From the NCBI GenBank assembly GCA_014437165.1, contig GCA_014437165.1_4090.3: a DNA stretch of 64,000 nt; one strand, given 5' to 3'. Positions within the stretch are counted from its first letter, which is position 1. Each line of letters begins with the position of its first letter. A program made the translations under genes and the position numbers. The notes under the pieces were generated by a model that saw only the letters and a list, made by a program, of their open reading frames with translations, had not been told where the DNA came from and did no database searches. Positions 404 to 3,184 of the stretch are shown here, in pieces. This stretch comes from a phage.

Positions 404-745
404 ATGCGTGAGTTTTTTGAATCTAATATAATGCTTGGTATTACACTGATATACATGTTTGTATTCTTGTTTTATCATTCAATTGTAATTAGTCTTTGGT
501 ATTTTAAAAGGAAAGTTGTTTTTAAATTGTATTCGTATGATAATGTATTCTTAGTTGTATATAGCATTATACAAGGTGGGTTTATTTTATTTGGTGTGAT
601 GACATATGTGATTTACATGTTACAAATTGATAACACACCACACATTACACAATATGTTGTGTTTTCAGGACTAATCGTCTGGTTATTGGTGTGTACTATG
701 TACTTTATTATTAAAGCTCGTAATAACTTTAAATGGGGATTCTAA
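404..745 (+). CDS. small 3-TM membrane protein, paralog array member
   Basis: three hydrophobic helices; SD GGAGA upstream; TTGACA/TATAAC-like promoter around 350-385; similar to next ORF (LIYxF.FLFYH..V..LWYFK+K.VFKLY). Confidence 0.6.
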   Translation: MREFFESNIMLGITLIYMFVFLFYHSIVISLWYFKRKVVFKLYSYDNVFLVVYSIIQGGFILFGVMTYVIYMLQIDNTPHITQYVVFSGLIVWLLVCTMYFIIKARNNFKWGF

Positions 746-1083
746 TGTTAGAATTTTTTAAATCAGATACAATGATTAGTATTACTTTGATTTATCTGTT
801 TGGTTTTTTCTTTTATCATGCACTAGTTGTAGTACTATGGTATTTTAAAAAGAAAATTGTTTTTAAACTGTATCCAGTGAGGAATTCATCACTAGTTCTT
901 TACACACTTGTTCAAGGTTTGTTTGCAATTGTTGGTCTTATGGCACACTTAATTTATTGTGCTAATCCTCACTTGAACTCAATCTCACAATATATTGTAT
1001 TCTTTGGGTTGTTCATTTGGTTAGTTGTATACTTAATCCATCTCATTATTCATGGTAGAGATAAAATTCGCGGAGACTTCTAA
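733..1083 (+). CDS. small 3-TM membrane protein paralog
   Basis: overlaps previous stop; strongly similar to 404-745 product. Confidence 0.6.
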   Translation: MGILMLEFFKSDTMISITLIYLFGFFFYHALVVVLWYFKKKIVFKLYPVRNSSLVLYTLVQGLFAIVGLMAHLIYCANPHLNSISQYIVFFGLFIWLVVYLIHLIIHGRDKIRGDF

Positions 1084-1430
1084 TGTTTGAAGCTTATCTT
1101 GAGTTTTTAAGGAGTAGTCCAGTTGCACATTCACTTGCAGGGATTATTCTAACAACTTATGTATCATTTTGGGTAGTTATGTTTCTAGGATGGTATTTTA
1201 AACGACAATTCTATAAACGTAATGGTGAAGATTTTATGAATTCTGTCATTAATCAATCGTTGTTTGCATCAACATTGATTGCATGTATTGTAGCAACACT
1301 CACAGGAAAGGTACTACCAGCTTTTTCCGCAGTTTACGGCACACTTGGGATGATATGTTTAACTTTTATATTGACCATTAAAATTTGTTGTGTTATGATT
1401 GAACTTCGAAATAAGATACCGGAGGAATGA
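1083..1430 (+). CDS. small multi-TM membrane protein paralog
   Basis: ATGA/TAATG stop-start overlap; hydrophobic helices; WYFKR motif. Confidence 0.55.
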   Translation: MFEAYLEFLRSSPVAHSLAGIILTTYVSFWVVMFLGWYFKRQFYKRNGEDFMNSVINQSLFASTLIACIVATLTGKVLPAFSAVYGTLGMICLTFILTIKICCVMIELRNKIPEE

Positions 1431-1765
1431 TGGAGTACTTTATTGATTTACTGCCGTGGTATATGAAAGTTAGTACTTTGTACTATATTATTAGTGCTGG
1501 ATTCTACTTTCTGATGTGGTTCTTCAAACGACCAATTTCAGTATTCATCGCTGATAACATGCTGCAATTAAAATTACACGCATGGTTTGGTATGGCGATG
1601 ATTATGCCTATTATTCACTACTCAATGATTAGTAGAGGTTTCCGTTCTAATGGTGAACCAATTGTATTAGTATTCTATTGGGGTTCAACTATTGCATATG
1701 TAAGTTTGTTGTTGTTCCCAGTCGTTCATAAATTACGTGCTAAAGTTCCTGATGCGAGGTACTAA
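1427..1765 (+). CDS. small multi-TM membrane protein paralog
   Basis: ATGA overlap; hydrophobic; WFFKRP motif. Confidence 0.55.
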   Translation: MMEYFIDLLPWYMKVSTLYYIISAGFYFLMWFFKRPISVFIADNMLQLKLHAWFGMAMIMPIIHYSMISRGFRSNGEPIVLVFYWGSTIAYVSLLLFPVVHKLRAKVPDARY

Positions 1766-2079
1766 TGGATATCGTAACATTGATTTACACGTTGTATTCA
1801 TTCTATTTCATTATGTGTTGGGTTGGATTTTTATTTGTACTGAAGATGTTTGATTATGTTGAAAAACAGATAAAAGAATTTTGTATTCCTTTTATTGGGT
1901 CAACCATTATTAGTATTACTTGTTTGTATTATTTGGTATGTGATCCACCTGATAATACAGCAATGATTGACTTGATGTTACTACCAACAACTGTTACTTT
2001 TTTATGTAGTCTGATGCCGCCGATTAGCCGTGGACTAACAGAATTTAGACGCAATCAAAAGCGTAAACGAGGGATGTAA
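1765..2079 (+). CDS. small membrane protein
   Basis: translationally coupled; hydrophobic helices. Confidence 0.5.
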   Translation: MDIVTLIYTLYSFYFIMCWVGFLFVLKMFDYVEKQIKEFCIPFIGSTIISITCLYYLVCDPPDNTAMIDLMLLPTTVTFLCSLMPPISRGLTEFRRNQKRKRGM

Positions 2080-2447
2080 TGGAAATTGCTCTTATTATCT
2101 TAACTGCTATGCTGTTTATTAGTACTGTGGTTATAATTGGTAAATTCTTTTGTGTATCATTTTTAGAAACGGTATACGATGAAATTGCTGATGATTATGA
2201 ATTACAAGCCGGATTTTTCATTACGTATTGGCTTAGTTTATTTTGTCTAGTCATTGCTTGGATTTTACATATCTTTAAATGGGGTATGGTAGACGGTGAT
2301 CCTATTATGGCAATTATTGTTCTAGTGTTTGGTATCCTTGGTGGTGCAGTGCATAATCTAATGGTTATCTGGCAAACTGTTCAATATGTTTTGGTTCCCT
2401 ATTTCGAAAAGATGCACAGTACAATTAAAAAACGTAAACGAGGTTAG
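2079..2447 (+). CDS. small membrane protein
   Basis: coupled ORF; hydrophobic helices. Confidence 0.5.
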   Translation: MEIALIILTAMLFISTVVIIGKFFCVSFLETVYDEIADDYELQAGFFITYWLSLFCLVIAWILHIFKWGMVDGDPIMAIIVLVFGILGGAVHNLMVIWQTVQYVLVPYFEKMHSTIKKRKRG

Positions 2448-2448
2448 T

Positions 2449-2811
2449 ATGAACGGGATAGAATTATCTTTCGTTGGTCAATTACTAGTAATGGCGTATA
2501 CATTTATCTTCTCACTGAATGCATTCGTGTGCATTGGGAAGTACTTCCATAAGCGACCATTATCAAATATATATGATGTAATCCAAAAGAGATATAGTCC
2601 AGCATATACTGTGTTGGGTACAGTATTCAATTTTGGTTTTATTGTATTAATAATTGGACTGTTCACATCCTCTTTGAATACAATAACCTTCGGTCTTATG
2701 ATATGTTCATTGGTATTAGCCGTAATTATATGTTGTTTAGTACTGCACCTTGTGGTACTATTGTATATAAAGATCTCTGAAATCCACCAACGTTTGGGTA
2801 TGAGGAAATAA
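2449..2811 (+). CDS. small membrane protein
   Basis: ATG at 2449 directly after upstream stop (track ORF 2386 would overlap; internal Met with GAGG SD preferred); hydrophobic. Confidence 0.5.
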   Translation: MNGIELSFVGQLLVMAYTFIFSLNAFVCIGKYFHKRPLSNIYDVIQKRYSPAYTVLGTVFNFGFIVLIIGLFTSSLNTITFGLMICSLVLAVIICCLVLHLVVLLYIKISEIHQRLGMRK

Positions 2812-2812
2812 T

Positions 2813-3184
2813 ATGAGTTACCGTGAGATATTTTCCATTATTTCAATTATTATGTTCAGTACTGGAACACTGGTATGGTTATTATACTTCTTCTGTATTA
2901 ATCCAGTGTATAATATGTTATGTAATATTAAATCAAGTGCCGGATATATCACTTTTATGGTCTTTATGGGATATTATTGTCTAAGCATTTTAGGTGTTGT
3001 TTTGGTTGTTATATTTGATGTGGGACCAAATAGTGATGGTATGGAAATACATGAATTAATAACCATGTTTGGATGTATGATACCAACAGCACTACTGTTT
3101 GTAGCTACTGGTAGTGGATTGATAAAATTATATAATTATTTAAAATCCATTCATAATTCCATTCATAATAAGCGTATGTCATAA
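2813..3184 (+). CDS. small membrane protein
   Basis: ATG 2 nt after previous stop; multi-TM. Confidence 0.5.
   Translation: MSYREIFSIISIIMFSTGTLVWLLYFFCINPVYNMLCNIKSSAGYITFMVFMGYYCLSILGVVLVVIFDVGPNSDGMEIHELITMFGCMIPTALLFVATGSGLIKLYNYLKSIHNSIHNKRMS

Follow-up and report, generated by a model that had tools for sequence, protein, structure and literature searches.

The subject of this analysis is a tandem array of eight small genes, designated M1 to M8, near the left end of a 64,000-nucleotide (nt) stretch of phage DNA (contig GCA_014437165.1_4090.3 of NCBI GenBank assembly GCA_014437165.1), referred to here at its full length as the window. Over bases 1-6000, the 64-kb window is 99.8% identical to Escherichia phages vB_EcoM_G17 (G17) and Sharanji and 96-98% identical to 121Q, PBECO4, and other members of Asteriusvirus, a group of RaK2-like jumbo myoviruses of ~350 kb. 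The array occupies positions 404-3184 on the plus strand and encodes proteins of 104-123 amino acids (aa), as originally predicted and as borne out by the list of open reading frames (ORFs) and by the sequence. Its counterparts in G17 are G17_00090 to G17_00083, every one of them annotated as a hypothetical protein. The array is a previously undescribed, lineage-specific superfamily of membrane proteins, encoded in tandem.

Table 1. Features of the array region, in window coordinates.
Feature	Position	Strand	Remarks
NrdC.10-like AAA ATPase gene, 3' end (last 97 codons)	45-338	+	phrog_1250, E 5e-33; cut by the left edge of the window
Sigma-70-type promoter	346-374	+	-35 TTGACA 346-351, 17-nt spacer, -10 TACTAT 369-374; consensus scan
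M1, family A, 113 aa, three-helix	404-745	+	phrog_19454
M2, family A, 112 aa, three-helix	745-1083	+	start overlaps M1 stop (TAATG); AlphaFold2 predicted local distance difference test (pLDDT) 77.7
M3, family B, 115 aa, three-helix	1083-1430	+	WYFKR ... LRNKIPEE; phrog_19046
M4, family C, 111 aa (112 aa from ATG 1427), three-helix	1430-1765	+	LMWFFKRP ... KLRxKIPDxR; phrog_27396
M5, family D, 104 aa, three-helix	1765-2079	+	phrog_33258; hhalign B-D 84.7%
M6, family E, 122 aa, three-helix	2079-2447	+	IGKFFCV ... H..IK.KKRG; phrog_26405
M7, family F, 120 aa, three-helix	2449-2811	+	GKYFHKRP ... IHQRLG
M8, family G, 123 aa, three-helix	2813-3184	+	YFCI.PVY ... IH..I..KR; phrog_27618
Hairpin at operon end, ATCCAGTACT-TAAT-AGTACTGGAT	3190-3213		scan; annotated as terminator in G17

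The genes are very tightly packed. Five of the seven internal junctions are one-base stop/start overlaps (four TAATG, one TGATG), and the other two are one-base spacers; where the original prediction described ATGA and TAATG overlaps, the TAATG type is confirmed, while ATGA occurs only if M4 is taken to start at the ATG at 1427. A GGAG/GAGG Shine-Dalgarno sequence lies 5-9 nt before every start, at the internal junctions within the end of the preceding gene. This packing is compatible with the translational coupling that had been proposed. Longer reading frames were considered for two genes and rejected on the basis of the G17 annotation and the N-termini of orthologues: a start at 733 for M2 (beginning MLEFF... 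in the orthologues), in favor of the TAATG start at 745, and one at 2386 for M7, in favor of 2449. The promoter hexamers (TTGACA-N17-TAcTAT) are kept over a varying spacer in six Asteriusvirus lineages (the window, JNE01, ph0011, vB_Ec-M-J, UE-S1, and PBECO4), and in most lineages of this genus a sigma-70-type promoter separates the array from the ATPase gene before it. The hairpin at the other end has a weak T run on the plus strand and, on the minus strand, an A run before it and a T-rich stretch after it, flanks which would be compatible with a two-way terminator; it is kept in ph0011, vB_Ec-M-J, and JNE01, with stem changes that preserve pairing. Promoter, eight coupled cistrons, and hairpin would together form a single transcription unit, probably an early one.

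M1 to M8 are real genes under purifying selection. The ratio of nonsynonymous to synonymous substitution rates (dN/dS) is 0.09-0.40 in 14 of 15 gene comparisons with two close relatives, the exception being M4 against vB_Ec-M-J (0.74), and, for those distant relatives that allowed an estimate of dS, 0.10-0.60. Values for the neighboring ATPase gene are 0.02-0.16. The order of orthologues is maintained across at least 14 divergent loci, and identity to the RaK2 orthologues goes down to 25-39%. M4 is the most conserved member of the array.

At the level of pairwise similarity, a relationship is clear for M1 and M2 alone (47% identity, E 1e-34), with M2-M3 marginal. The sequence LIYxF.FLFYH..V..LWYFK+K.VFKLY, thought originally to be shared by several members, is common to M1 and M2, M3 and M4 having only its W[YF]FKR portion; GK[FY]F is common to M6 and M7. 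Alignments were therefore built for seven families (A to G, Table 1), with orthologues from ph0011, vB_Ec-M-J, A4, JNE01, RaK2, and three metagenomic contigs, and compared as profiles. Within one sub-group, hhalign probabilities are 96.5% for A-B, 96.9% for B-C, 85.8% for A-C, and 84.7% for B-D; within the other they are 96.0% for E-F, 93.5% for E-G, and 88.2% for F-G. All of these family-to-family alignments are full-length and collinear, and reversed-sequence controls give at most 2.1%. When the merged A-D and E-G profiles, enlarged with more distant members, are compared with each other, the probability is 96.2% (E 2.6e-9, 106 collinear columns), with reversed-sequence controls at 7-9%. Members from Erwinia phage Hallingskeid match several families simultaneously, and hidden Markov models (HMMs) of the families, run against the window, match only the eight genes, many of them across families. 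Beyond M1 and M2, the original suggestion of an expanded paralogue family is thus borne out at the profile level only. Because of the profile-profile comparison and the cross-family HMM matches, the eight genes are placed in one superfamily; as judged by their sequences, all eight proteins are homologous, anciently diverged paralogues.

The superfamily can be defined as proteins of 93-130 aa with three helices, an aromatic-basic motif ([WK][YF]F[KC]) where helix 1 meets the cytoplasm, and, after helix 3, [LFIVM][RH]xx[ILFQV] with a basic tail behind it. In its more specific form the signature at the cytoplasmic end of helix 1 is LW[YF]FK[RK] in families A-C and GK[FY]F in E and F, and that after helix 3 is [LF][RH]x[KR][IL]P, again with a basic tail. 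All eight window proteins have these features, with motifs that are canonical or degenerate (the helix-1 motif is degenerate in M5 and M8); as regular expressions, the two motifs are found in 59/91 and 73/91 proteins of the wider set. A further group of three-helix proteins, "family X" (..YH......DY.F..), closes the module in several lineages and is not present in the window. It was seen at 5327-5671 in RaK2 (locus L002) and in L013 (10482-10796), L019 (6889-7230), L021 (3200-3508), L022 (7292-7603), and L023 (9573-9881), and has weak profile similarity (78%) to family B.

As first noted by eye, the proteins belong to no known family: there was no above-threshold match in Pfam, NCBIfam, or PADLOC, and no match to a PDB structure or known fold for the array proteins. 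Sub-threshold hits to DUF443, SUR7, Wzy, and PycTM in the Pfam, NCBIfam, and PADLOC scans were set aside as chance matches. In PHROGs, M1-M6 and M8 fall into the six families listed for them in Table 1 (E 1e-51 to 1e-70), all of "unknown function"; M3 also weakly matches phrog_16874 ("membrane protein," E 1.2e-5), and M7 has no PHROG of its own. What appear there as six unrelated families are merged here into one superfamily. In the literature on RaK2, Asteriusvirus, Alcyoneusvirus, and NrdC.10, the array is undescribed and no transcriptome was found for these phages, and published accounts of RaK2, CBB, Sharanji, fEgEco12, and UE-S1 do not mention it. A note in the ph0011 record equating M2 with "Phi92_gp233" was not upheld, as tblastn with M2 and M4 returned no phi92-like phage at E up to 0.01.

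The three hydrophobic helices originally described for each protein are supported by Kyte-Doolittle analysis, which gives three segments in 7/8 proteins at a threshold of 1.6; M4 shows all three only at a lower threshold. AlphaFold2 models of M2 (Table 1) and M4 (pLDDT 87.1, predicted template modeling score 0.74) both have three long helices, with a short helix in loop 1. Among 101 small ORFs (90-135 aa) from array loci, a set which includes a few non-array flanking ORFs, 91 have exactly three hydrophobic segments. The mean number of Lys plus Arg residues per protein is 0.4 at the N-terminus, 3.1 in loop 1, 0.5 in loop 2, and 4.6 in the C-terminal tail, which by the positive-inside rule would place the N-terminus in the periplasm and loop 1 and the tail in the cytoplasm. 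M1-M8 are accordingly predicted to lie in the inner membrane in an N-out/C-in orientation. Conservation follows the same division: mean pairwise identity within families is 0.46 for loop 1 and 0.50 for the C-terminal tail, and 0.32, 0.27, and 0.25 for helix 2, loop 2, and helix 3. The conserved residues, whose cytoplasmic position the original prediction had not picked out, lie where helix 1 (W[YF]FK[RK]) and helix 3 ([LF][RH]x[KR][IL]P) reach the cytoplasm, as well as in the basic tail, and no polar residue is conserved across families in the helix cores. A sequence search of the PDB with a family profile found only the membrane segment of integrin alpha-1 (E 0.73), taken to be a chance match through its GFFKR-like motif.

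The superfamily is narrowly distributed. A tblastn search with M2 and M4 identified 45 phage records, all from Asteriusvirus or Alcyoneusvirus. Profile searches of 5.8 billion clustered proteins gave 20 clusters for family C and 27 for A/B, and a HMMER scan of 1.84 billion representatives gave 50 clusters at E up to 0.001, with lengths of 56-128 aa (97-128 aa for all but one fragment). Ten of the more divergent clusters are from metagenomic assemblies, some of them on contigs of ~351 kb. Every context examined was that of a RaK2-like jumbo phage, and the superfamily appears, from the sequences found so far, to be known only from these.

Gene context was compared at loci from RaK2, A4, JNE01, ph0011, vB_Ec-M-J, UE-S1, PBECO4, and Hallingskeid, and on contigs L010-L012 and L015-L023. 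In every one, a gene for an NrdC.10-like AAA ATPase of 254-256 aa is immediately followed by an array of 7-12 copies, an arrangement also present in the window (Table 1) and not remarked on in the original prediction. The full-length ATPase of G17 (G17_00091, 256 aa) has AAA-type Pfam matches and ~40% identity to T4 NrdC.10. Outside Asteriusvirus, the stop codon of the ATPase gene and the next start overlap or are 1-4 nt apart in L011, L012, Hallingskeid, L019, L021, L022, and L023; in RaK2 and L010, a different small ORF directly abuts the ATPase gene. In most loci the next genes after the array are RCC1-like and on the minus strand. In RaK2 (L002 5744-6340), A4 (L003 5803-6354), L010 (3400-3966), and L011 (4229-4795), the array is followed by a gene for a DUF1190 (YgiB-like) protein that has a lipoprotein-type signal. 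Translational coupling joins this gene to the final gene of the array in A4, L010, and L011, whereas in RaK2 the two are 72 nt apart; none was found in the 64-kb window. A soluble ORF of 42-43 aa (MKPEQWII[ED]DMR...YL.LL.WYVKV) was also seen in or beside the array in most of the non-Asteriusvirus loci examined: L002 2766-2891 (RaK2, where it is unannotated), L010 828-953, L013 6957-7082, L019 6265-6387, L021 1817-1942, and L022 3752-3877. No such ORF was detected in L012 or L023, and the window lacks it, as do the loci of A4 and JNE01.

Copy number differs among lineages through duplication and loss. M1 comes and goes among genomes of 96-99% identity and is missing from several Asteriusvirus genomes, and there have been independent duplications of family A in G17 and L010, family B in RaK2, and family D in JNE01. 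In Salmonella phage SD-1_S14, M1 is absent and M3 largely deleted, with only residues 90-115 left (L009 1835-1924). Genomes are smaller (311-326 kb) in four Salmonella-propagated relatives, in which the array region is covered only in patches; these gaps could be real deletions or assembly problems. In PBECO4 and UE-S1, an apparently missing M7 and truncated M1 were considered as pseudogenes and rejected, being annotation gaps with frames intact. A "second place" matched in many genomes was likewise considered as a second locus; since it is seen only in genomes with both genes, it is most likely a cross-match between M1 and M2.

The ATPase gene and the array do not always share a history. In ph0011 and UE-S1, a G17-like array (73-98% identity) is preceded by an ATPase gene whose product shares just 59% identity with its G17 counterpart and 86% with that of Hallingskeid, while A4 pairs a G17-like ATPase (97% identity) with an array of only 26-67% identity. 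The comparison of alleles (L001 2568-3338, from G17, against L003, L004, L005, L007, and L013) gives two ATPase types in Asteriusvirus, ~59% identical to each other, one of them 86-87% identical to that of Hallingskeid. Since the alleles are distributed independently of the array, their pattern points to a probable recombination breakpoint at the ATPase/array boundary.

Of the roles suggested originally, holin or antiholin activity is disfavored by the type of promoter, the absence of an annotated lysis gene from the 12 kb of G17 around the array, and the lack of any match to a holin model, and superinfection exclusion or membrane take-over appears the most plausible. The reading tentatively favored here, although with somewhat less than even confidence, is that M1-M8 are early inner-membrane take-over or exclusion effectors which act independently of each other. 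Host RNA polymerase would transcribe the operon at the start of infection, and the eight proteins would insert into the host inner membrane in about equal amounts and act there as host take-over effectors. Likely roles would be to block the entry of DNA from other phages (superinfection exclusion) or to neutralize membrane-based host functions or defenses. Different paralogues would be directed at different targets through their variable membrane-embedded parts, and the cytoplasmic face that they share would be needed for a step common to all, for example insertion, docking, or regulation. This interpretation is suggested by the accessory-like birth-and-death dynamics of the array and the dispensability of some members, by constraint that is relaxed relative to the ATPase gene and a membrane-embedded part that is variable, and by the linkage to an envelope lipoprotein gene in some lineages.

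The functional class judged most likely is that of the early inner-membrane superinfection-exclusion proteins of T-even and other phages. Among these, the small Imm and Sp proteins of T4 have two helices and one helix, respectively, and each is encoded by a single gene. The array proteins resemble them in being small phage proteins, predicted to be early and in the inner membrane, and in forming a variable accessory part of a large myovirus genome; they differ in having three helices and in being encoded in a multi-gene array. None of the array proteins matches the Imm or Sp families in Pfam or PHROGs. Erwinia phage Hallingskeid has a separate gene, ~5 kb upstream of the array, that is annotated as Imm-like, which suggests that the array has a role other than that of Imm.

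Several observations weigh against independent effectors. The array proteins have no homology to any characterized exclusion, immunity, or anti-defense protein in Pfam, PHROGs, NCBIfam, or PADLOC. The seven orthologous families are found in nearly the same order from E. coli to Klebsiella phages, and sub-groups A-D and E-G are both present in each array examined; a fixed multi-subunit assembly fits this conserved order and joint presence at least equally well. Nor would conservation on the cytoplasmic face be predicted from a simple block of incoming DNA on the periplasmic side. Finally, the early timing is itself derived from the promoter consensus, and relatives outside Asteriusvirus have no separate promoter for the array, which is coupled there to the ATPase gene.

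The main rival, unlikely on balance, is a hetero-oligomeric inner-membrane assembly of the paralogues that works with the upstream NrdC.10-like ATPase and that, in other lineages, would have the 42-aa MKPEQW peptide and the DUF1190 lipoprotein as additional components. In this case the conserved cytoplasmic motifs would be a docking surface for the ATPase or for adjacent subunits, with the subunit ratio fixed by translational coupling. Such a complex might anchor replication or assembly at the membrane, or carry out transport across the envelope. An assembly would account for the preserved family order with both sub-groups always there, for the cytoplasmic position of the conserved residues, and for the tight packing with uniform Shine-Dalgarno sites. 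The ATPase gene adjoins the array in all of the at least 14 independent loci, though the genes flanking the pair differ, and in seven of them the ATPase stop and first array start overlap or lie within 1-4 nt; given the strong general synteny in this phage group, however, adjacency is weak evidence. Against a fixed assembly are the variation from 7 to 12 copies, with lineage-specific duplications and losses, the dispensability of M1 and seemingly, in SD-1_S14, of M3, the exchange of the ATPase independently of the array in ph0011 and UE-S1, and the promoter that separates the two in Asteriusvirus. T4 and its relatives, moreover, retain the ATPase (~40% identity) without any such array. The T4 nrdC region is similar in that its NrdC.10 is homologous to the upstream ATPase and that both lie in early accessory regions, but no three-helix array follows NrdC.10 there. 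T4 NrdC.9, NrdC.8, and NrdC.7 were considered as counterparts of the array and rejected, as the first two are soluble, the third has two helices, and none has an HMM match. In a more specific and rather less probable form of the same proposal, the ATPase, the 7-12 paralogues and, in most lineages, the 42-aa peptide and DUF1190 lipoprotein would make up a hitherto unknown, ATP-driven, hetero-oligomeric machine of the envelope, peculiar to RaK2-like jumbo phages and composed of diverged copies of a three-helix subunit. It might be a membrane anchor or a conduit, for handling the ~350-kb genome or exporting phage factors.

Two further possibilities rest on membrane activity of the proteins themselves. 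That they are ion-conducting pores or bend membranes, acting on the membrane potential or providing platforms or vesicles for a very large genome, seems improbable, although small multi-helix proteins, made early and probably in quantity, could serve such purposes, and the plain three-helix bundle of the AlphaFold2 models could oligomerize. More doubtful still is a role for one or more members as a holin or antiholin setting the timing of lysis. Class I holins have three helices, an N-out/C-in orientation, and a basic C-terminal tail, a layout matched by the array proteins in size, helix number, predicted topology, and tail; the likeness to lambda S105-type holins, also phage-encoded, extends to length (~100-125 aa) and the cytoplasmic position of the tail. 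No homologue of T holin or of RI antiholin is reported in the RaK2 genome paper (PMC3622015), and the CBB paper gives a predicted N-terminal membrane helix for the endolysin of this phage group (PMC5259590), so the holin may still be unidentified. The array nevertheless has an early, sigma-70-type promoter, with no late-type TATAAATA box upstream, and 8-12 copies where lambda has one dual-start gene. No endolysin is adjacent, and neither endolysin nor spanin is annotated in the 12-kb stretch of G17 around the array; in 121Q the array is at about gp224-232 and the endolysin is gp532 (PMC5259590). No holin family was found among matches in Pfam (E up to 1) or PHROGs (E up to 0.1), with no NCBIfam match, and 7-12 holin-like genes in one early operon would be unprecedented and probably lethal. 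Chance open frames or decaying pseudogenes, which DNA of 30-32% GC might favor by yielding hydrophobic codons and long ORFs, are excluded by dN/dS values below 1 wherever dS is usable, frames intact in each relative examined except SD-1_S14, conserved orthologues in RaK2, and Shine-Dalgarno sequences at every start, and are left with a negligible probability.

Other features of the region and of related genomes were recorded in passing. The promoter type found before M1 occurs again in the window at 35472-35500 and 35748-35776, and all three sites (the first at 346-374) have the promoter-like sequence TTGACAGTACT-N10-TAGTACTAT in common. Twelve-mers resembling TTGACAGTACTA number 66, vs. 9.8 expected. 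A phage-specific, extended early-promoter consensus containing AGTACT is suggested. Past the hairpin is a 220-aa ORF (3226-3888) which matches phrog_34359 and has no Pfam match; it has a C-terminal ...[LM]FQYSL... in common with four tandem soluble ORFs in L010 (4010-5900), and these look like a second paralogue family beside the array. From 4346 to about 20000, a minus-strand run of paralogues of ~270-390 aa (ORFs of 389 and 269 aa were seen) converges on the array operon, and its counterparts have RCC1/WD40-like Pfam matches or are labeled "regulator of chromosome condensation" or "DNA condensation protein." The first of these labels is also carried by array genes in CRJP21 (OQ708376), probably in error; further probable annotation errors are "endonuclease V" for a 72-aa ORF of A4 (ON286972, A4_227) and "thioredoxin" for NrdC.10 homologues in many T4-like genomes.

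RaK2-like jumbo phages are phage-therapy candidates in which the function of more than 80% of the genes is unknown. Six "unknown" PHROGs and one orphan are now a single superfamily with a defined signature and topology, and the array is among the few features that are both specific to this group and present in each relative examined, with a block of ~2.8 kb reserved for membrane proteins in phages whose hosts are E. coli, Klebsiella, Erwinia, or uncultured. If the array does serve exclusion or counter-defense, it would bear on how these phages behave in cocktails and on which hosts they can use. If instead the proteins form a complex with the ATPase, phages would have a membrane machine of a new kind, and the widespread T4 NrdC.10 family would have its first functional lead.

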